Part shown: positions 9,010 to 58,368 of the stretch, piece by piece
Position numbering within the stretch: the first letter of the stretch is position 1
Layout: each line of letters opens with the position of its first letter
Source of the DNA: an uncultured Verrucomicrobiae bacterium
Lineage (GTDB): Bacteria; Verrucomicrobiota; Verrucomicrobiia; Chthoniobacterales; JAFAMB01
Reading direction: 5' to 3'
Length of the DNA: 64,000 nucleotides
Assembly: GCA_963750185.1 (NCBI GenBank)
Contig: CAVVPV010000014.1
Coordinates: 128,521 to 192,520, forward strand
Program-made: the position numbers and the translations under genes
The notes under the pieces: model-generated
Told to the model about the DNA's origin: nothing
The model's database searches: none
What the model saw: the letters and a program-made list of their open reading frames with translations, nothing else

Positions 9010-9716
9010 ACAGGACACTCTTCAGCGAAGTGCAACGGCTTTTCGAGCGGACCTACGCTTCAGTCGGGATCAACCTCGAGGAGTGCCTGATCGATCGGGC
9101 CCGTTGCTCGCAGCTTTCGAAATTGGCAGGGAAATCGGCTCGGGAGCTGAGTGAACTTGCCAGGACATTCTTGCGCACTTCAGATAACCGATTGTATGTG
9201 GGAATCTATTACTCAAGCTGGCTGATCGACCAGTTGGAGAGGCACGATCCGCGGGGGGGGCTCTCTGACACCAATATCCGCTCGTTGATCATGTTCGTGG
9301 AAGAAATTAACCACGCCCTGCACGCCGCGCTACAGTTCAAGGCCGGCTTGCGCCGGATCGATAGCGAAGATTTTGCACGGAATCTGGAACTGCAAGCGAC
9401 GGTGGATACCTATATGGTGCTGTTGATTTTCGTCGCGTTCTTTCGAAAAACGCAGCGGATTTCGAGGATGGATCGGCGATGGCTTCGGTTTCACCTGTTC
9501 GAGTCTCGGGCCAAGCATGCGTTCGAGGACGAAAACCTCCGGGCACGCTATCTGGAGACCGGCGAACTCGCGGCTTCGTACACCCACTATCTCGATACGT
9601 TGAACGGCGCGCGGCGTCTGGATGAGATCCGTAATTTTCATGCGCTCCCGTATGATGCCAAGAAACGGCATATCGAGGCGCTGATGAACAGGCCCGCGCA
9701 AGCCGAGGAAGGGTGA
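9006..9716 (+). CDS. Hypothetical protein B (236 aa)
   Basis: ATG 9006 overlaps the upstream TGA. Sequence ...YVGIYYSSWLIDQLERHDPRGGLSDTNIRSLIMFVEEINHALH...NLELQATVDTYMVLL. Its stop overlaps GTG 9713 of the STAND remnant. Confidence 0.6.
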   Translation: MNRTLFSEVQRLFERTYASVGINLEECLIDRARCSQLSKLAGKSARELSELARTFLRTSDNRLYVGIYYSSWLIDQLERHDPRGGLSDTNIRSLIMFVEEINHALHAALQFKAGLRRIDSEDFARNLELQATVDTYMVLLIFVAFFRKTQRISRMDRRWLRFHLFESRAKHAFEDENLRARYLETGELAASYTHYLDTLNGARRLDEIRNFHALPYDAKKRHIEALMNRPAQAEEG

Positions 9717-10215
9717 GCCACGGAGAGAAGCGGTGTCGGCGCTTGGGTCGCATCGAGACGCCTCTACCGTCGCGTGTCGGAACTCGCAAGCCGCAAGCAA
9801 GACTTGGACCGAAGAAGATTTCCGTAGCCAGGTTGCCGGTTACCGGAAGCGATGTTTTTGGTCGAGAGGAGGATATCGCCTTTCTGGATCGTGCATGGGC
9901 AAACAAGGATGTCAACGTCGTCACAATCGTTGCCTGGGCTGGGGTCAGGAAATCCACGCTCGTTAACCATTGGCTTCGACGGATGGCTACTGGCCATTAT
10001 CGTTCTGCGGAGCTTATTTTTGGGTGGTCCTTCTACAGACAGGGCAGTAGTGGGGAGACTTCGTCCGCAGTTGAATCTCTTGATGCGGCTCTCAACTGGT
10101 TTGGAGATCCAGATCCACGGCTCGGAACGGGATGGGAGAAAGGCGAAAGGCTCGCGAAGCTCGTCGCGAATCGTTGAACCTTATTGGTGGTGGATGGCTT
10201 GGAGCCGCTCCAAAA
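9713..10215 (+). pseudogene. STAND (NB-ARC/NACHT-type) P-loop NTPase, N-terminal remnant only
   Basis: VFGREEDIAFLDRAWANKDVNVVTIVAWAGVRKSTLVNHWL is a STAND N-terminus whose Walker A Gly is replaced by Arg (AGG at 9947-9949). An in-frame TGA lies at 10175-10177. Walker-B-like TLLVVDGLEPLQ follows, then homology ends. Confidence 0.7.
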
Positions 10216-10510
10216 GCGGATTTTTACGCTTGATTTTGAGGTATTTACGCGAACAGGTTACCTTCGAGTTACCTTACAACTCGGGTTTTTACCCCATGTC
10301 ATGACCTTGCCACCCTCAAGAAAATCGACTGTGGCTAAAGGGTGGTTAAGTAAATTCTAATTTCCGCTCCTCCAAGAATCGCTCTGACCGTGTGGTCTAA
10401 ACAAAGTCCCAAGCCCGGGACCTCTGCCGTGACAGGGCAGGTATTTCTAGAAGAGAGCTCTAGCCAGGTGGAGCAGAAAGTCAGCAGCTTTTGCGAAATT
10501 AAGTAAACAA

Positions 10511-10926
10511 CTATTCCTGCTTCAAAAGAATAGTGAATCCAGCCTGCTCGAAGTGGTGATCATTCGTCAGAACCTCGAAGAGCCCGCGGCTGCGCATTAC
10601 TAAGATCGATGCACAATCAGTCAAGCTCCACTCCTTGTCGATGTGCCGAATGTATTCCGAAAGTGCACGTTGGAAAAGCGAAGTCGTTTGGAGTTCGATC
10701 TCGATATTAGGATCGCTTCGAATCTCTTGAATGAAATCGCCAGCGCTTTGCGAAGAAAAGCTCCGCGCCAGCTAAAGAAGTTTGCCAACTCGGTCAAAAT
10801 CATTTCCGTGGTCACAAGCATGTCACTTGCGTGCTGCCGGGAAACCCCCTTGGCAAGTTCGTGGAGCGAGTCTTTTTGGTGCAATAAGGCGACCCAGTAT
10901 ACCGTGTCTGCGAAGAGTCGCCTCAT
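10511..10926 (-). pseudogene. PIN-domain (VapC-like) toxin gene carrying a frameshift
   Basis: Frame 1 reads MRRLFADTVYWVALLHQKD...LVTTEMILTELANF (PIN Asp/Glu positions). Another frame continues ...DPNIEIELQTTSLFQRALSEYIRHIDKEWSLTDCASILVMRSRGLFEVLTNDHHFEQAGFTILLKQE*, a typical PIN C-terminus. The frame switch lies near 10741-10770. Confidence 0.75.
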
Positions 10927-11853
10927 TCACCTTCTCCTCGGGGCTCCATACAAGTAGTGATCCAAGTTAACAGAAGCATCCTTGGGTAATTTATCCCACT
11001 CCTCTTCAGGAACACGGCGCGCGACTTCTTCCGCAATTTCCCAAATGGGTCGTCGCGCTGTCGTCTCAGCGACCGTAGCTACGGATAAGACATTGAATTC
11101 ACTGACTTTCTCAATCCGCAACAGCTCTCCGGTAGTCCCTCCGAACTCACCGATCCCCCTGATTTCTAAGTGCGACGTCTTATGGTTTCGTAGCGCCTCA
11201 GTAATTGTTGATTCTTGGTCTTCAGAGAATTTCCCAGTCACTTTCAATTCATCATCCAATCGGAGGGTGAACGTACGGGAATCTAAATTTGCTGCCCGCA
11301 GTTCCCCCCTGAGTGTGATCTCATCTTGAAAGTCTGCCGCTATCCTCTTTTCAAAAAGAAACTTGGTATCACGAGTAAACGTCGCCTTCTTGCCAGATCT
11401 TCCAGAGGCAAAACTAATCGCTTCATCCGCGGACAGATACCGGGTGAGCTCCGCGAACATTGGGACCACACGGCGCGAAAGACCCCGAGGAAGCCGTTGT
11501 TCATTCTGAACGGCTGTTATTGAATCCGCTATGAGGTCAACCGCTTCGTCGAACTCATCCTCTGGCGGCTCAATTATCAGAGAATCATCCGGCGCACTAT
11601 AAATGCGCTCCAGCGGCACCGTAGTGCTCCCGCCCTGGATAGAAAACATCTTTACACAGAAGCGATCTTCGAAATTCACCGCTAACCGCTCGCGTTCAGG
11701 ATTTCTTCTCCTCCAGATATCTTTCGCAACTTCGGCTATTAAGGATTTAAAGGCTACAATCTCGGGCAGTACATCGAGATCGAGTCCGTGGTCTTCAAAT
11801 CTAGCGCCATGGAAGGTCTGCTTAGCCAGGGTGTAATGTTTAAAGGCGCTCAT
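10927..11853 (-). CDS. 308-aa protein: unknown ~260-aa N-terminal region plus antitoxin-like C-terminal tail, coupled to the PIN gene
   Basis: The stop TGA (10927-10929) abuts the PIN ATG (TGAATG). The C-terminal RRPIWEIAEEVARRVPEEEWDKLPKDASVNLDHYLYG resembles short antitoxins found upstream of PIN toxins. The N-terminal region has no family I can name. Confidence 0.55.
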   Translation of the reverse strand: MSAFKHYTLAKQTFHGARFEDHGLDLDVLPEIVAFKSLIAEVAKDIWRRRNPERERLAVNFEDRFCVKMFSIQGGSTTVPLERIYSAPDDSLIIEPPEDEFDEAVDLIADSITAVQNEQRLPRGLSRRVVPMFAELTRYLSADEAISFASGRSGKKATFTRDTKFLFEKRIAADFQDEITLRGELRAANLDSRTFTLRLDDELKVTGKFSEDQESTITEALRNHKTSHLEIRGIGEFGGTTGELLRIEKVSEFNVLSVATVAETTARRPIWEIAEEVARRVPEEEWDKLPKDASVNLDHYLYGAPRRR

Positions 11854-12042
11854 TATGGTACAATCCCTCCACGCAAAGTTACTTTGGTGCTCTAAAGATG
11901 GGAAGAGTCAAGTTCACGCTATTTTCGCACAGTGTTCACTTGAACACAAACGCAACATTTCACTCCGTTTAATCTCATTAATCATCTCGCATTACCGCTT
12001 GTGTTGCGGGATGTTACGCAAGACTAAAGGAGGTGTTCCAAG

Positions 12043-12180
12043 ATGCCGACTTCCAAGAAAGATGCGAGCAAAGCCAGCCGGTTCCTCTCGAATCCGAAAA
12101 GCCCAAAGAACGTAAAGAGCGTCGCGGGTTCTGATTTGTCTCAAGCAAAGAACCAAAAGAAGAATCAGAAAAAGCGCTAG
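12043..12180 (+). CDS. Small Lys/Ser-rich basic protein (45 aa)
   Basis: Not in the ORF track because it is under 60 aa. A strong SD (AAAGGAGGTG at 12027-12036) sits 6 nt before the ATG. Product MPTSKKDASKASRFLSNPKSPKNVKSVAGSDLSQAKNQKKNQKKR. Confidence 0.4.
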   Translation: MPTSKKDASKASRFLSNPKSPKNVKSVAGSDLSQAKNQKKNQKKR

Positions 12181-12485
12181 TAACGATTCTTCGTTGACCT
12201 TTGGGTGCGAATGCCGCGCGGCGCGACGCAGAGGGCATATTTCAGCGATTAAACAGATTCGCATATCCGAGTTGCAAAGCATTTCCACCAAGATGCCCTA
12301 GGATGTCCACGCGCGGCATCCTTCCATTCTTCCATCTCTCTTCCCCTAACCCCCTTGCTCTATCGCCTTGATACCACGTTTTGCCTCAACGCCCGCGCCT
12401 TGCGCTTCAACTTTCGTGTGCCGCGTGGCAATATTGAAGGCATTTTAAATTGCTTAGGGGCGGTTACAGTGCCACAATGGGATTT

Positions 12486-12596
12486 ATGGCTGAGCGCCAC
12501 CTAACGACACAGGTATTTACGCCTAGCAGCCCAGCGAAACTAACCTTCGTTGAGCGCGAAGCAGTGAACGACCAATTTTTCGGGCAGTTGCATTAG
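12486..12596 (+). pseudogene. Orphan N-terminal stub (36 aa) of a P-loop ATPase-type gene
   Basis: MAERHLTTQVFTPSSPAKLTFVEREAVNDQFFGQLH* resembles the lead-in that precedes the Walker A loop in a class of ATP-binding proteins (VFTPxxPAxxxFVERExxN). It ends in a stop and no P-loop follows. Confidence 0.35.
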
Positions 12597-12930
12597 GCAT
12601 GTTCAACGAGCGTGAGCGCAACCAACGTTCATTTGGCTACTATGTACCGGCGGAGTTCAACTACCAACTGGAGAGCCGAATGCCGGAGATCGGCCTGTTC
12701 GGTTCGGGAGGAGGGGCGTCGCTAACCGACGTCCCTACCTCATCACCCGACACTAGTCCGCTTCAGGCGATCCGCACCGAGAGTCAAATCGTCAAGCGCG
12801 TTTGTTTGCATCATAGTCTCTTGGTGAAGCAAAAGCACTTTCACTTCGGAAAATCCGAGAGCTTGCGTTTCAGCTCGGCCAGTCCGATGATGCTTACTCC
12901 ATTCTTGATAAAACTCGCATGATCTGATCT

Positions 12931-13653
12931 ATGTCGCAGGAGGACTCAATCGACCTACTTGTTTGGCGAGCACGCCGGAGGGATGAAGTGATCATTGCAA
13001 ACCCAGCCACAATCCAGAGAGCGATTGAAAGGGGCGAGCCGATTACTGAGCCTCCACGCCTCTCGGCGGAAGACGCGATCACCAAGCTCTTCGACGAGCG
13101 CAAGCAACACGCACTTTCGCTCGCGTCTTCGTTGCTGCCTTGCCCCTTCTCGGATACGGCGATCCTTTATCTCTATGATCAGATTAGACTTTGCATCCTG
13201 TTCAACCTCGATGGAGCAGCAATTACTTTTTGCGGGATACTGGTCGAATATGCGCTGAAATACGCGACCTACCGAAAGGAAAATCTCGGCACTACGAGCT
13301 TCGACTCATCAGCCTGGGACCAGTTTGAAAACCTTACGCTAGCCCAGGCCATTTCTCGGGCGAAAAAAGCGCGACTGATCGACGAAGCACGCGAAAAGGC
13401 CCTTCATTTGTTCAGAGAAAACCTTCGTAACAGGTACAGCCACTTCAATATTCAAAAGATCACAAAAGACGTCTTCTTTTCGGCGGCGAAACAGAAGAAC
13501 ATGGAGACGGGAGAGGAAAAGCCTGTCGAACTGGCTGCGTCCACCCCGACGTTACAGATTCTCGCTAAGAATCGGCTGGATGAAGACAACGTGATGAACG
13601 TGTTCAAGTTCGCAGATCGTATTATGCGCGACCTTTCTGGAATATCGTCTTGA
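12931..13653 (+). CDS. DUF4145/HEPN-like protein (240 aa)
   Basis: AAITFCGILVEYALKY ... LTLAQAISRAKKARLIDEAREKALHLFRENLRNRYSHFN follows the helical layout of DUF4145-type HEPN domains and carries an R-x4-H motif (RNRYSH). Confidence 0.5.
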   Translation: MSQEDSIDLLVWRARRRDEVIIANPATIQRAIERGEPITEPPRLSAEDAITKLFDERKQHALSLASSLLPCPFSDTAILYLYDQIRLCILFNLDGAAITFCGILVEYALKYATYRKENLGTTSFDSSAWDQFENLTLAQAISRAKKARLIDEAREKALHLFRENLRNRYSHFNIQKITKDVFFSAAKQKNMETGEEKPVELAASTPTLQILAKNRLDEDNVMNVFKFADRIMRDLSGISS

Positions 13654-13691
13654 GCTTCTCTTCCGGCTCCCCACGACCTGGCGGTGATCTT

Positions 13692-14297
13692 CTATAGAAC
13701 TTTGTTTCCGCCCATTCGGTGTATATCGGGAAGGCTGACAGTGCGGATAGAGGGGCCGTGCTTCGGGATTCGTCTCTGATCGATTTCGAAAACGCGGAAG
13801 TTCGGTGAGAGTTCACACTGAACGATTTCATTGTAATTCCAGTAGACGAGGAGCACGAGAAGACCAGCGGCTGATTTCAGAACGTTGCCAAGGTTTGCTT
13901 CTTTGAAGAATTCGTCTCGATGATGTTTCACCTTTTGGTGGAATTCCCACCAATCGGGACTAGCGTTGCCTTGCGTCTCTTGCCAATTCTTCCACGGTGT
14001 TAAAGCGAGAGGGACAGGTAATACGGTGACCTTGAGTTGGGGTAGGAAGTCATGATGCGCTGGAATAATGCGTCTGTAATCTCGAATGTCTCGAATGTTG
14101 CCTGGGTCTTCGTCGCCCTTGATGCGTTTGCAGAGTAGTTTGGCCACTACATCGATTTCTGAGCAGATCGAAAGATAAAGCCCTGCCAGATAAACGGAAT
14201 AGGCGGGAAAATTTGCCTCCGCGAACTCCACCTGCCGAGAGAACGTGTGCAACTCCTCGTCAATCATCTCGAAGAAGGACCAGTGAAGATGAGCCAT
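13692..14297 (-). CDS. Hypothetical protein (201 aa), possible HEPN-like helical protein
   Basis: Convergent with 12931..13653, 38 bp apart. Motifs YRRIIPAHH (R-x4/5-H) and DWWEFHQKVKHHRDEFFKEANLGNVLKSAAGLLVLL. No secure family assignment. Confidence 0.45.
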   Translation of the reverse strand: MAHLHWSFFEMIDEELHTFSRQVEFAEANFPAYSVYLAGLYLSICSEIDVVAKLLCKRIKGDEDPGNIRDIRDYRRIIPAHHDFLPQLKVTVLPVPLALTPWKNWQETQGNASPDWWEFHQKVKHHRDEFFKEANLGNVLKSAAGLLVLLVYWNYNEIVQCELSPNFRVFEIDQRRIPKHGPSIRTVSLPDIHRMGGNKVL

Positions 14298-14674
14298 AGG
14301 GCAATCAATTCAATCAAGCTACGCTTGCAAAGAATCTTGTAGTGCTTTTACTTTTGCTTCCAACATTGCATCAGTCGCAATAGTTTTTCCCCTGCACCAA
14401 TCCTATTTCGTAGTTTTTGATTCCAACGCTTCCCTCTTTGGTCGCATTTCCGATAGGAAATGTTTCTAATGTTATAATATAAAAATGCTAATGTAAATGC
14501 ATTAGCTCGGTTATTTTTCAGTGTATATTGTTGCACCGCTGACAGCGCTTTTTATTTAGTTTGACATTCTTAAATCGCGGTCGGCCGTTTTCCGCTTGAC
14601 TAACCACCTATTCCAGTTTATGCCAGTTACATGTCACAATCATTGTTACTTATTATACCACCGGAGATCATCAA

Positions 14675-14893
14675 ATGAGTGTAGGCGACATACGACAACT
14701 TTACCCTGAACAGTTCGAGCGAATCATGCAGCTCGGCGAACTCCGCGCCCAAAATCTTGCCAAATGGGCCGAACGAAAAGAGCGAAAAGAGGCTAAACGT
14801 CGAGATTCTCGCTGTGGGCTGCTGGACCGCCGAAACAATTCGCGCCTTCGCGGATCGGCTTTGGCCGGACGGATCTTAATTGAGCTGGCTTGA
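14675..14893 (+). CDS. Hypothetical small protein (72 aa), doubtful
   Basis: GGAGA lies 8 nt upstream of the ATG and the ORF follows an AT-rich promoter-like region. The Arg-rich C-terminal half looks non-native, and a +1 frame reads more protein-like (VEILAVGCWTAETIRAFADRLWPDGS), so this may be a frameshifted remnant. Confidence 0.25.
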   Translation: MSVGDIRQLYPEQFERIMQLGELRAQNLAKWAERKERKEAKRRDSRCGLLDRRNNSRLRGSALAGRILIELA

Positions 14894-15067
14894 TCAATAT
14901 CGCCCTCGTCCGCGGGCGTACATGGACGATACACGCGAGAGCGCATGCACCGGTGCTCGGTGGGTTCGCGCATTTGTGCGTCGAATCGCTAGGAAACGAT
15001 CAACCGGCACTTTTTTTCCGATGCGAGTTGACCTGCCGTTCGGCGTTAAATTACAAGGCGGAGAAAC

Positions 15068-52190: not shown

Positions 52191-54383
52191 TCACGCCTGC
52201 CGTCGAATACTATTGCGAAGCCTAAGCGAGTTCGCGATCACCGATACGCTGCTTAGCGACATCGCGACGCTCGCGATCATTGGGTTCAGTAGCAGGCCGA
52301 ACATCGGGTACAAAATTCCGGCTGCAACCGGGACTCCCAGGAAATTGTAAACGAAGGCAAATACCAGGTTTTCACGGATTTTCTTCATTGTCTCACGACT
52401 TAGAAGAATCGCGGAAACAAGCAGGTTGAGGTCTCCTTTCACAAGGGTTATACCGGCGCTCTCGATAGCGACTTCCGTTCCGGTTCCCATTGCGATGCCG
52501 ACATCGGCCGTTGCTAGCGCAGGCGCGTCATTGATGCCGTCTCCCGCCATGGCGACTTTCGCGCCATTGGCTTGCAGTTTGGCGATCTCTTTCTGCTTCT
52601 GTTCAGGAGAAACTTCGGCGATGACGTCATCGATCCCCGCAGCTTCTGCGATCGATCGCGCGGTCACTTTGTTGTCTCCCGTCAGCATGACGGAACGAAT
52701 TTTCAAGTCGTGCAAACGCTTGACGGCATCCGCCGAGTTCCGTTTGAGGGTGTCGGCGATTGCGATTAATCCTGCCGGCTGGTTGTCGATCAGAACCACG
52801 ACAGCTGTCTTTCCCTCTCGACGCCAGCGATTTGCGGCTGCGCTGGAAACGTTTTCCGGCGCCTCGTCGCTCAACGATTTGCCAACGTAGACTACACGCG
52901 AATTAACCTCGGCTCTCACGCCCGAACCGACCGTTGCCTCGAAGGCGGTCGCCTTCGGCAGAGCCTGATTGCCGGCCGCGCGCACGATCGCGCGTCCGAG
53001 GGGGTGTTCACTCAACGACTCCACGGCAGCAGCCAGTTGGAGCACCTCAGACTGCGAGAAGGGCTTGAACGCTACTGTCTCGACGACCTTCGGGTTACCC
53101 TCGGTCAAGGTGCCGGTTTTATCGAATGCGACGACACTGATTTTTTCCAGTTCCTCCAGTACTGCAGCGTCCCGGACCAGGATACCGAGTTGCGCGCCGC
53201 GTCCAACACCGACCATCACCGCCATCGGCGTTGCCAGTCCAAGTGCGCACGGGCACGCGATAATCAGCACCGCAACTGCGGCACTAAACGCGAACGACAA
53301 CCGTGGTTCAGGACCGAAAAGCAGCCAAGCGGCAAATGTGATGAGAGCGACCAGCAGAACTGCCGGGACGAACCATTCCGAGACTTTGTCCGCGATTCGC
53401 TGCACGGGAGCCTGGGACCGCTGGGCCTTTGCCACCAGATCGACAATTTGCGCGAGCAACGTTTCGCCTCCGACGCGTTCTGCGCGGAAGATAAAACTGC
53501 CGGAGCCGTTGACTGTACCGCCAATGACAGTGTCGCCTGCTCTCTTTGTGACCGGCATCGGTTCACCGGTGATCATCGCTTCATTCAGGTCCGAATTGCC
53601 CTCGAGCAAAATGCCGTCAACCGGCACTCGATCACCGGGCCGCACACGAAGAATGTCGCCGGCATGAACCTGCTCGAGTGGAATCTCTTCTTCTTTGTCC
53701 GCGACGACTCGCCGGGCGGTACGCGGTGAGAGTTCCAGCAACGAGCGAATCGCCAAGCCAGTCTTTGATCGAGCGCGCAGCTCCAGGACCTGGCCCAGCA
53801 ACGCCAAAACCGTGATGACGGCAGCCGCTTCAAAATAGCTGGTTGCTGCGTGAGACGTGTGACCCGTCGCGGGCACAATCAGCTGTAGAACGCTGAACAG
53901 ATACGCGGCGGTTGTTCCGAGAGAGATCAGCGTAAACATGTTTGGTGTCCGGTTGAGTACTGATTTCCAGGCCCTTTCCAGGAAGGGCCAGCCGGCCCAG
54001 AAGTAAACGGGTGTGCTTAATGCGAATTGGATCAGAAGATTGGCTCTTTCCCCGAGGGCGCCAATCAACCGATCGAGACCCGACACCATCTCGCCCATGG
54101 CGAGGACGAGAACGGGTAGCGCCAGGATCGCTCCTATCCAGAATCGGCGCGTCATATCTTTGAGCTCGCTCTGGTCATCCGGTCCCGCTGTTGGCGCGAT
54201 TGGCTCCAGCGCCATCCCGCAGATCGGGCAGCTGCCCGGTTTGTCAGAAATGATTTCCGGATGCATTGGGCAGGTGTATTTACCTGCGCTCGCCCGCTTT
54301 GCGGGCGGATCTGCCGGCGTGCGCGCGTGCTCCGTGCAGGAATGATGTTCGCTATTGGCGTGATTTTCTAGATGAGAATGCAT
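52191..54383 (-). CDS. copA: Copper-translocating P1B-type ATPase
   Basis: N-terminal YTCPMHPEI...CPICGMAL metal-binding module, TM CPC motif ([13 protein letters not shown]), DKTGTLT, GDGINDAPAL. Confidence 0.92.
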   Translation of the reverse strand: MHSHLENHANSEHHSCTEHARTPADPPAKRASAGKYTCPMHPEIISDKPGSCPICGMALEPIAPTAGPDDQSELKDMTRRFWIGAILALPVLVLAMGEMVSGLDRLIGALGERANLLIQFALSTPVYFWAGWPFLERAWKSVLNRTPNMFTLISLGTTAAYLFSVLQLIVPATGHTSHAATSYFEAAAVITVLALLGQVLELRARSKTGLAIRSLLELSPRTARRVVADKEEEIPLEQVHAGDILRVRPGDRVPVDGILLEGNSDLNEAMITGEPMPVTKRAGDTVIGGTVNGSGSFIFRAERVGGETLLAQIVDLVAKAQRSQAPVQRIADKVSEWFVPAVLLVALITFAAWLLFGPEPRLSFAFSAAVAVLIIACPCALGLATPMAVMVGVGRGAQLGILVRDAAVLEELEKISVVAFDKTGTLTEGNPKVVETVAFKPFSQSEVLQLAAAVESLSEHPLGRAIVRAAGNQALPKATAFEATVGSGVRAEVNSRVVYVGKSLSDEAPENVSSAAANRWRREGKTAVVVLIDNQPAGLIAIADTLKRNSADAVKRLHDLKIRSVMLTGDNKVTARSIAEAAGIDDVIAEVSPEQKQKEIAKLQANGAKVAMAGDGINDAPALATADVGIAMGTGTEVAIESAGITLVKGDLNLLVSAILLSRETMKKIRENLVFAFVYNFLGVPVAAGILYPMFGLLLNPMIASVAMSLSSVSVIANSLRLRNSIRRQA

Positions 54384-56902: not shown

Positions 56903-57331
56903 GTGACCACGCACGACGAACGCGTCCGGCAGAGCTTTTTCAAGCAGGCCTTCATGTCCACCTTGGGGGCCGAACTAACCGCAGTTGGGGAGGGCGTTGT
57001 TGAAATTCGGCTGCCATTCTCGCCGAGCCTGACACAGCAGGACGGCTACCTCCACGCCGGCGCAGTTACTGCCGTTCTGGATTCTGCTTGCGGTTACGCA
57101 GCCTTGAGTGTTGCTCCCGCCGACCATGAGGTTCTCACGGTGGAGTTCAAGGTAAACCTGCTTGCGCCCGCTGCGGGTAAGGTTTTCATCGCAAAAGCGC
57201 AAGTCAAGAGGGCGGGCAGGAAGCTGACGGTCTGCACGGCCGATGTATTTGCACTCAGAGGCGACAAGCAGAAGGTGGTTGCGACGATGCTGGCCACAAT
57301 CATGTTGGTGCCGACAACACATGCGAAATAA
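56903..57331 (+). CDS. PaaI-family hotdog thioesterase
   Basis: [19 protein letters not shown]...[21 protein letters not shown]...[11 protein letters not shown] start as in the ORF track. Confidence 0.8.
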
Positions 57332-57430
57332 CACCAAATTCAACGGGAGCAAACATGTATAGTCATTTGCGCGACGAAACACTACATTGCCGACGCGTAT
57401 CGGCAGGGTGGTTGAGCTATTCGCTCGAGT

Positions 57431-58156
57431 GGCGATCTCTTCTGCTTCCTGTTCAGGAGAAACTTCGGCGATGACGTCATCGATCCCCGCAGCTTCTGCG
57501 ATCGATCGCGCGGTCACTTTGTTGTCTCCCGTCAGCATGACGGAACGGATTTTCAAGTCGTGCAAACGCTTGACGGCATCCGCCGAGTTCCGTTTGAGGG
57601 TGTCGGCGATTGCGATTAATCCTGCCGGTTGGTTGTCGATCAGAACCACGACAGCTGTCTTTCCCTCTCGACGCCAGCGATTTGCGGCTGCGCTGGAAAC
57701 GTTTTCCGGCCCCTCGTCGCTCGACGATTTGCCAACGTAGACTACACGCGAATCAACCTCGGCTCTCACACCCGAACCGACCGTTGCCTCGAAGGCGGTC
57801 GCCTTCGGCAGAGCCTGATTGCCGGCCGCGCGCACGATCGCGCGTTCCAGGGGGTATTCACTCAACGACTCCACGGCAGCAGCCAGTTGGAGCACCTCAG
57901 ACTGCGAGAAGGGCTTGAACGCTACTGTCTCGACGACCGTCGGGTTACCCTCGGTCAAGGTGCCGGTTTTATCGAATGCGACGACACTGATTTTTTCCAG
58001 TTCCTCCAGTACTGCAGCGTCCCGGACCAGGATACCGAGTTGTGCGCCGCGTCCAACACCGACCATCACCGCCATCGGCGTTGCCAGTCCAAGTGCGCAC
58101 GGGCACGCGATAATCAGCACCGCAACTGCGGCACTAAACGCGAACGACAACCGTGG
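57431..58156 (-). pseudogene. Internal fragment of a copA paralog (CPC motif through the P-domain) lacking both ends
   Basis: Collinear with 52581-53306 at a constant offset of 4850 nt, with about a dozen substitutions (~98% identity). Similarity stops abruptly at both ends. It sits inside the chimeric ORF 56975..58300. Confidence 0.85.
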
Positions 58157-58368
58157 ACCATGTTCTTTAGCGGTGCCGTTGAGTGGCAACGAAGGTATAT
58201 TCGCATCGCGTTTTTCGGATTTTCTATCGCTTTCCGATACAAATAAAAGGGCTAAAGTTTGCACGGTACGCGTCGACAGAGAAAGCAAGCCCGGAGACAT
58301 GTTGGCGAACGCAGACGCGATCTGAATCAGACTTCCCCCTGGAAATTATACGAGTATTACAGTTCAAA

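Follow-up and report, generated by a model that had tools for sequence, protein, structure and literature searches.

A PIN-associated gene pair with a putative modular antitoxin, a VapBC-like candidate from an uncultured Verrucomicrobiae bacterium

The 64,000-nucleotide (nt) stretch of DNA analysed here (the window) comes from an uncultured Verrucomicrobiae bacterium (assembly GCA_963750185.1, contig CAVVPV010000014.1, positions 128,521 to 192,520) and carries, on its minus strand, a gene for a protein of 308 amino acids (aa), called gene 1, followed by a PIN toxin gene. From sequence comparison, and with a probability of about 0.7, we read this pair as a VapBC-like toxin-antitoxin (TA) module with a modular antitoxin, in which a putative PIN-neutralising tail is carried by a two-domain accessory part. 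The family to which the pair belongs is large and widespread, and has neither name nor annotation. In the window the PIN gene is broken by one missing base, a deletion that is probably genuine.

The gene pair and the three parts of gene 1

A GGAGGG Shine-Dalgarno sequence precedes the 308-codon open reading frame (ORF) of gene 1, and the ATG of the PIN gene (10924-10926) directly abuts the TGA of gene 1 (10927-10929). The ORF coordinates agree with the TGA-ATG coupling at 10924-10929 reported in the preliminary description of this DNA. The layout is that of the VapBC type, with an antitoxin-like gene directly upstream of the PIN gene and translationally coupled to it. The features are the following.

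11854-11899, minus strand: conserved 46-nt leader with the GGAGGG Shine-Dalgarno sequence, the upstream edge of the segment in common with the nearest relative (locus L042)
10927-11853, minus strand: gene 1 ('A'), putative antitoxin, intact 308-aa ORF, TGA stop at 10927-10929 included
11335-11853, minus strand: gene 1 residues 1-173, alpha/beta domain of unknown fold
11080-11334, minus strand: gene 1 residues 174-258, acidic OB-fold
10930-11079, minus strand: gene 1 residues 259-308, linker and helical tail, putative PIN-neutralising module
10621-10926, minus strand: PIN toxin gene, 5' piece, similar to PIN proteins over its first ~60 codons and out of frame from there to the stop at 10621
about 10746-10750, minus strand: site of the frame break, with one base fewer in a short A-run, from DNA alignment with intact relatives
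10511-10749, minus strand: PIN toxin gene, 3' piece, -1 frame, TAG end at 10511-10513
10420-10510, minus strand: 3' trailer, GC-rich hairpin at 10423-10441, downstream edge of the segment in common with L042

The 5' frame of the PIN gene is open over 101 codons, and its similarity to PIN proteins is lost near codon 60: the PIN-like stretch MRRLFADTVYWVALL...TTEMILTELANFF... is followed by nonsense up to the stop at 10621. The -1 frame encodes ...GDFIQEIRSDPNIEIELQTT...DKEWSLTDCASILVM...TNDHHFEQAGF, a stretch that contains DKEWSLTDCASILVMRSRGLFEVLTNDHHFEQAGF and ends at the TAG at 10511-10513. In a tblastn comparison with an intact relative, the 5' piece corresponded to residues 1-61 with 70% identity and the 3' piece to residues 56-138 with 77% identity. 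The four acidic residues of the PIN domain (D7, E46, D104 and D123) were all present when the window pieces were aligned with 24 partner PIN proteins. The assignment of the window protein as a PIN is drawn from these 70-77% identities to relatives and from the motifs. Partner PIN proteins matched the Pfam family PF01850 with E-values of 2.7e-10, 3.3e-9 and 5.4e-6, and their nearest solved structure was that of M. tuberculosis VapC20 (PDB 5wzf, E = 9.3e-11). VapC20 is an endonuclease that acts on the sarcin-ricin loop of 23S rRNA. Gene 2 is thus a predicted VapC-like PIN ribonuclease, here inactivated.

A word-based search with gene 1 gave 99 homologues of ~300-310 aa, none of which had a label other than 'hypothetical'. 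Among 1.84 billion representatives, a profile search gave 3925 clusters at E <= 1e-3, 581 of them at E <= 1e-30, in at least 10 phyla. Of the possibility named in the preliminary description, a common annotated family, one half holds: the family is common and yet unannotated, every source giving 'hypothetical protein'. Related loci were collected with a 12-sequence profile over species-representative genomes, which led to 28 species-level loci from Verrucomicrobiota, Planctomycetota, Omnitrophota, Acidobacteriota, Hydrogenedentota, Thermodesulfobacteriota, Myxococcota, Binatota, Melainabacteria and Alphaproteobacteria. The intact homologous pairs that the preliminary description had suggested looking for do exist: a full-length, single-frame PIN gene (135-146 aa) follows gene 1 in 22 of the 28 loci, mostly with a 4-bp overlap. 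L001-L004 and L006 hold intact pairs. The PIN gene is broken or truncated in 6 loci and gene 1 is broken in 4. Since the same pair is found in 28 species-level genomes, its association is not due to chance.

The gene-1 tree is at odds with the organismal phylogeny. Between the window and L042, homology (95.8% identity) was limited to a 1.48-kb cassette, 10420-11899, with unrelated flanks; as the two closest copies share the cassette alone, the cassette moves as a unit. By these comparisons, it is a compact (~1.5 kb), horizontally mobile element of a predicted two-gene TA type. An imperfect 13-nt inverted repeat (TCAAGTTCACGCT / AGTGTTCACTTGA) at 11908-11943, 55-90 nt upstream of gene 1, does not fall within the segment in common with the nearest relative and is therefore probably not part of the cassette.

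Searches of Pfam and NCBIfam with the 308-aa protein and both PIN pieces gave no match, and a PDB sequence search with the family profile gave noise alone (E >= 0.55). An AlphaFold2 model of gene 1 was built on 48 homologues, with a mean predicted local distance difference test score (pLDDT) of 86.5. The ~260 aa ahead of the tail, previously described as one domain that could not be placed, are predicted to form two domains, one of which could be assigned. Residues 1-173 form an alpha/beta domain (domain model with pLDDT 90.6 and predicted TM-score (pTM) 0.87) that had no significant match among PDB folds, with a best E-value of 0.024 and no alignment-length-normalised TM-score above 0.4. Residues 174-258 form an OB-fold of five strands with a helix between strands 3 and 4, for which Foldseek returned SilF, IF1, the N-terminal OB domain of LysRS and RPA from the PDB with a probability of ~1.0. 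None of the ribbon-helix-helix (RHH), AbrB, Phd or helix-turn-helix (HTH) DNA-binding domains of antitoxins was detected with Pfam and NCBIfam, the predicted fold being alpha/beta plus OB instead. The family is acidic, with a median isoelectric point (pI) of 5.2 for the whole protein and, for the OB-fold, a median net charge of -3 and a pI of 5.3. Antitoxins are typically acidic and OB-folds that bind nucleic acids typically are not, which weakens a nucleic-acid-binding role for this OB-fold.

Within gene 1, the N-terminal motif F.G.RF.DHGLDLDVLPEL ranks first in conservation and the tail motif, PIW.EIAEE...VPEEEWDKLP.D...NLDHYLYG, comes next; W286, P290, D292, N296, L297, Y300 and Y302 of the tail are invariant or nearly so. 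The tail was also found free-standing, in 13 proteins of 50-81 aa. In L012, the gene for one of them (80 aa) overlaps by 4 bp with the PIN gene (135 aa) that comes next. These small proteins bear out the earlier proposal that the last ~45 residues look like an antitoxin. In L005, P0098, an unrelated protein of 340 aa, ends in the same tail and is directly followed by a PIN gene. From these arrangements, the tail appears to go with PIN genes whatever precedes it, in three N-terminal contexts. Pfam searches with the tail alone and with the C-termini of PDC-M32A proteins, presented below, gave nothing credible.

Around these tail proteins, L012 (1527-3147) holds tandem antitoxin and PIN pairs (83 + 135 aa and 80 + 135 aa) with a 101-aa gene between them, just upstream of pheT, and its 80-aa protein has a DUF2281-like N-terminus ahead of the gene-1-type tail. 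In L011 (1159-2680), the gene for a 59-aa free-standing tail protein lies directly downstream of an AIPR (abortive-infection) gene and is not followed by a PIN gene.

The N-terminal domain and the OB-fold (N+OB) were found apart from the tail as well. The PADLOC profile PDC-M32A matched gene 1 at residues 8-261 with an E-value of 3.6e-46, only over profile positions 5-258 of 375; gene 1 is thus not a full-length match. True PDC-M32A proteins (376-401 aa) matched at profile positions 3-372, share N+OB and have a different C-terminus of ~110 aa. They are followed by PDC-M32B, a protein of ~132-139 aa with no Pfam match that is not a PIN. The window PIN pieces and the partner PIN proteins of L001 and L004 gave no PDC-M32B match, against E-values of 2e-44 and 1.4e-49 for true partners. 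On the Limnohabitans plasmid pTEGF4, a PDC-M32A/B pair, both proteins of which RefSeq labels hypothetical, sits amid RelE/ParE, VapBC and HigBA-like pairs. From these sequence relationships, N+OB is a candidate swappable accessory module, separate from the tail.

Three phage or prophage proteins gave a fold match over both domains (E-values of 1e-11 to 9e-10), and no match was found among 50,697 phage records. DUF6575, a lead from the viral structural match, is one of the defence-associated domains listed by Vassallo et al. 2022, but had no sequence-level match to gene 1; it is unconfirmed and was set aside.

Several homologues have a different domain make-up. P0206 (453 aa) and P0210 (426 aa) bear a Pro/Ser/Gln-rich, probably disordered insert of 120-150 aa between the N-terminal domain and the OB-fold, so that these two domains are separable units. 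P0194 (405 aa) has a Cys-rich (zinc-ribbon-like) C-terminal extension of ~100 aa beyond the tail. P0013 (263 aa, from a JGI metagenome) combines in one frame the N-terminal ~187 residues of a gene-1 homologue and the last ~75 residues of the partner PIN, a natural deletion fusion without OB-fold, tail or PIN N-terminus.

Proposed mechanism and genomic context

In the VapBC-like mechanism that we propose, the tail would bind the PIN protein and block its active site, as VapB tails do, and N+OB would have an accessory role as a regulatory or sensing platform that would more likely bind a protein than a nucleic acid. Like the Panacea domain of PanA, this platform could combine with various neutralising ends and toxins. 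A trigger, such as infection by a phage or a disturbance of a neighbouring type I restriction-modification (R-M) system, would free the PIN protein, which would cut RNA and stop growth. In the window genome, the one-base deletion has probably killed the toxin and left an intact orphan antitoxin.

The placement of the cassette bears on the nature of the trigger. In 7 loci (L006, L019, L021, L024, L026, L031 and L032) it lies directly downstream of hsdS, the specificity gene of type I R-M, and in 5 of these (L006, L021, L024, L026 and L032) the gene identified on its other side, directly downstream, is the methylase gene hsdM. On the gene-1 tree the hsdS-adjacent state needs 4 changes, at least 3 of which are forced by well-supported branches; with at least three gains or losses, the R-M placement is not a single hitch-hiking event. 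In L006 (1617-2762), a Fic/DOC-family gene belongs to the same operon, in the order hsdR-fic-hsdS-A-PIN-hsdM, so that this operon would have received two toxin-type insertions.

The preliminary description had seen in gene 1 the fusion of a sensor domain with an antitoxin, as expected for a defence-type TA. The PDC-M32A homology and the R-M placement go in this direction, and its sensor part stays inferential: by analogy, a role of N+OB in sensing phage or guarding R-M is possible, though we hold it with low confidence. In its widest form, N+OB would be a widespread trigger-sensing platform, a 'second Panacea', arming PIN, PDC-M32B and probably other toxins, with the hsdS-adjacent copies guarding restriction and releasing the RNase when a phage disables it; this extension we regard as equally tentative. 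Several observations count against the mechanism as a whole. About 21 of the 28 loci are not beside recognisable defence genes and have ordinary neighbours. PDC-M32 is an unpublished and unvalidated PADLOC candidate. With such an acidic protein and OB-fold, neither nucleic-acid sensing nor operator binding is obvious. The window PIN, even when read through the break, had no Pfam match at E <= 1; the PIN of L001, which is 75% identical to it, is likewise beneath Pfam detection and aligns with other PINs throughout.

The acidity also bears on the best-surviving alternative, an ordinary type II TA in which N+OB would be an unusual dimerisation or operator-binding domain that autoregulates the operon in place of RHH, AbrB or HTH. 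Classical antitoxins do consist of a DNA-binding domain and a toxin-binding tail (PMC10440598), nucleic-acid binding is frequent among OB-folds, defence neighbours are absent at most loci, and the plasmid PDC-M32 pair stands amid ordinary TA pairs. However, N+OB is acidic (pI of 5.2-5.5, net charge of -3 to -4 per domain), its 260 aa are much more than operator binding needs, conservation upstream of the two closest copies extends over 46 nt only, and type I R-M operons repeatedly hold the cassette, which has no clear promoter region of its own there. We consider such autoregulation unlikely, if worth keeping in mind.

The similarity to the OB domains of IF1, LysRS and RPA, the lack of a DNA-binding antitoxin domain and the strict conservation of the pair would also suit a two-component nuclease, in which gene 1 would be a substrate-recruiting or activating partner whose OB-fold delivers RNA or single-stranded DNA to the PIN protein. 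This is improbable, as the tail alone (50-81 aa, without OB-fold) pairs with the same kind of PIN in the manner of small antitoxins, the gene order and 4-bp overlap are those of antitoxin-first systems, the surface of the OB-fold is acidic, and in this lineage the PIN gene breaks while gene 1 stays intact, as expected if losing gene 1 before the PIN gene is harmful.

The frameshift in the window

The frame change that the preliminary description had situated within 10741-10770 corresponds to a single missing base at ~10746-10750. The DNA alignment with intact relatives showed exactly one gap, CGC-AAAGCG in the window against CGTAAAAGCG in the relatives, and this one base splits the PIN gene into two frames. 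Three explanations had been put forward, inactivation, sequencing error and programmed shift, of which real inactivation is now favoured.

Support for the frameshift was judged from independent (Logan) assemblies of public runs. A soil metagenome run (X1) holds 78% of the sampled words of the locus at 100% identity and is probably the source sample of the window. Its contig has zero differences from the window over 10672-10942, the deletion included. Four other soil runs (X3, X4, X8 and X9), with contigs 95-99% identical, have one base more at the break site. The nearest full relative, recovered from three assemblies (L042-L044), is 95.8% identical over 1483 bp and has the full A-run; its PIN gene is broken by an insertion of one base that arose independently, 43 nt upstream of the window deletion site, and its gene 1 is intact. 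The PIN region of L042/L043/L044 lies at ~1630-2050, with flanks (e.g. an FMN reductase gene) unrelated to those of the window.

Since X1 carries the deletion, the 95-99% relatives are intact at this site and L042-L044 has a separate frameshift, a real loss is favoured: the deletion is probably genuine, a very recent toxin loss in a lineage with at least two independent losses. The orphan gene 1 has been left intact and, by substitution counts, would still be under some constraint. Against the nearest relative, the ratio of non-synonymous to synonymous substitution rates (dN/dS) was 0.22 for gene 1 (16 synonymous, 12 non-synonymous) and 0.54 for the PIN gene (4 synonymous, 8 non-synonymous), counts that are too small for a significant contrast.

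The reading as a real loss has a weak point in X1, where coverage of the deletion is low (~3.4x word depth), and this run may not be independent of the window assembly. A sequencing or assembly artefact, in an organism with an intact functional pair, would agree with a break at which a homopolymer differs in length by one base, and with the low depth of the likely source run. It would also agree with the intact break site of alleles at least 98% identical in other samples, and with the conservation of the broken PIN, in which the catalytic residues (D7, E46, D104 and D123) are all present, as are 29 of the 30 positions with at least 90% conservation across the PIN alignment. On the other hand, the independent Logan assembly of X1 is identical over 10672-10942, the A-run has merely 3-4 bases, the nearest relative shows its own distinct frameshift 43 nt away in three separate assemblies, and the PIN gene or gene 1 is broken in 7 of the 28 other loci, so that we see little room for an artefact.

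A programmed shift, by ribosomal frameshifting or transcriptional slippage, that gives a low and regulated amount of full-length PIN would fit a break in a short A-run where a -1 shift restores the frame, but is very unlikely since the site lacks a slippery heptamer (X XXY YYZ) and has a run of only three A's, the frame is uninterrupted in close relatives, and other broken copies differ in site and direction. A shared frameshift hot-spot was dismissed with it, as the breaks in these other copies vary in position and in kind (a G5 run, truncations and a +1 insertion), some being in the opposite direction.

In the window the neighbours of the cassette are a remnant of a STAND NTPase and orphan genes, with no hsd genes among them. 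The cassette is located in a low-GC islet at ~10200-14900 (GC fraction of 0.475-0.52 versus 0.53-0.59 in the flanks), together with the end of the STAND remnant, a DUF4145-like orphan of 240 aa (12931-13653, Pfam E-value of 0.004) and a convergent orphan of 201 aa (13692-14297). The STAND (NB-ARC/NACHT-type) NTPase remnant, at 9713-10230 on the plus strand, has a Walker A motif GVRKST, with Arg for the usual Gly, and an in-frame stop at 10175-10177. Beyond this stop a Walker-B-like LVVDGLEPLQ is found and the similarity then ends, the gene being seemingly cut at the start of the islet. The islet looks like a small graveyard of degraded conflict-type genes. The window copy is of local interest as a case of toxin-first decay, with two close copies broken independently, in such an islet.

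Elsewhere in the window, a 441-aa ORF (56975-58300, minus strand) matches only the middle of heavy-metal P-type ATPases (profile positions 197-449 of 560). A full-length CopA-type gene (52191-54383, minus strand) is found 2.6 kb away, and the 441-aa ORF may be a truncated paralogue. The SppA and CopA proteins of the host fall into clusters (>= 90% identity) with proteins assigned to Chthoniobacterales, and the host is probably a soil bacterium of this order.

Comparison with known systems

For thousands of 'hypothetical' clusters, spread over ten or more bacterial phyla, the comparison suggests one architecture, a putative PIN-specific neutralising tail attached to a two-domain accessory module of unknown fold. 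That the same module also occurs on PDC-M32, together with another toxin, hints at a further hyper-modular antitoxin platform.

The repeated adjacency to hsdS raises the hypothesis of a toxin-based back-up for restriction, which recalls PrrC/EcoprrI and other abortive-infection genes situated within type I R-M operons. The 7 loci have the cassette beside type I R-M genes, as prrC lies within EcoprrI, and the effector would be an RNase in both cases. The proteins are unrelated, however, the window copy has no R-M genes nearby, and a control of the PIN by R-M is drawn purely by analogy; if the guard reading is true, it would be a PrrC-like back-up made of unrelated parts.

With PDC-M32, the family shares a homologous N-terminal domain and OB-fold (the first ~258 of 375 positions) and a small downstream partner of ~130-140 aa. 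It differs in that PDC-M32 has its own C-terminal domain of ~110 aa and a partner, PDC-M32B, that is not a PIN.

The likeness to the PanA antitoxins (Panacea, DUF4065; Kurata et al. 2022, Ernits et al. 2023) is one of design only: a conserved accessory domain is combined with interchangeable neutralising domains and can thereby pair with unrelated toxins. For PanA, it was shown experimentally that the Panacea domain is accessory and that a separate domain neutralises (PMC10440598). Gene 1 has no DUF4065 match (no Pfam match at E <= 1), its predicted fold is alpha/beta plus OB, and the partner toxin types documented for N+OB are two so far.

The closest comparison is that with VapBC, of which the family can be described as a large unnamed variant with a new accessory module, its link with R-M being suggestive. 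Gene 1 differs from VapB antitoxins by its 308 aa, by an alpha/beta domain and an acidic OB-fold in place of RHH, AbrB, Phd or HTH, with no Pfam or NCBIfam match, and by the frequent position of the family cassette inside type I R-M operons. In common with VapBC, the family has PINs of ~136-142 aa with four acidic residues, an antitoxin gene that comes first and is coupled, an antitoxin C-terminal tail that is the part going with the toxin, and the usual order of decay, in which the toxin is lost first.

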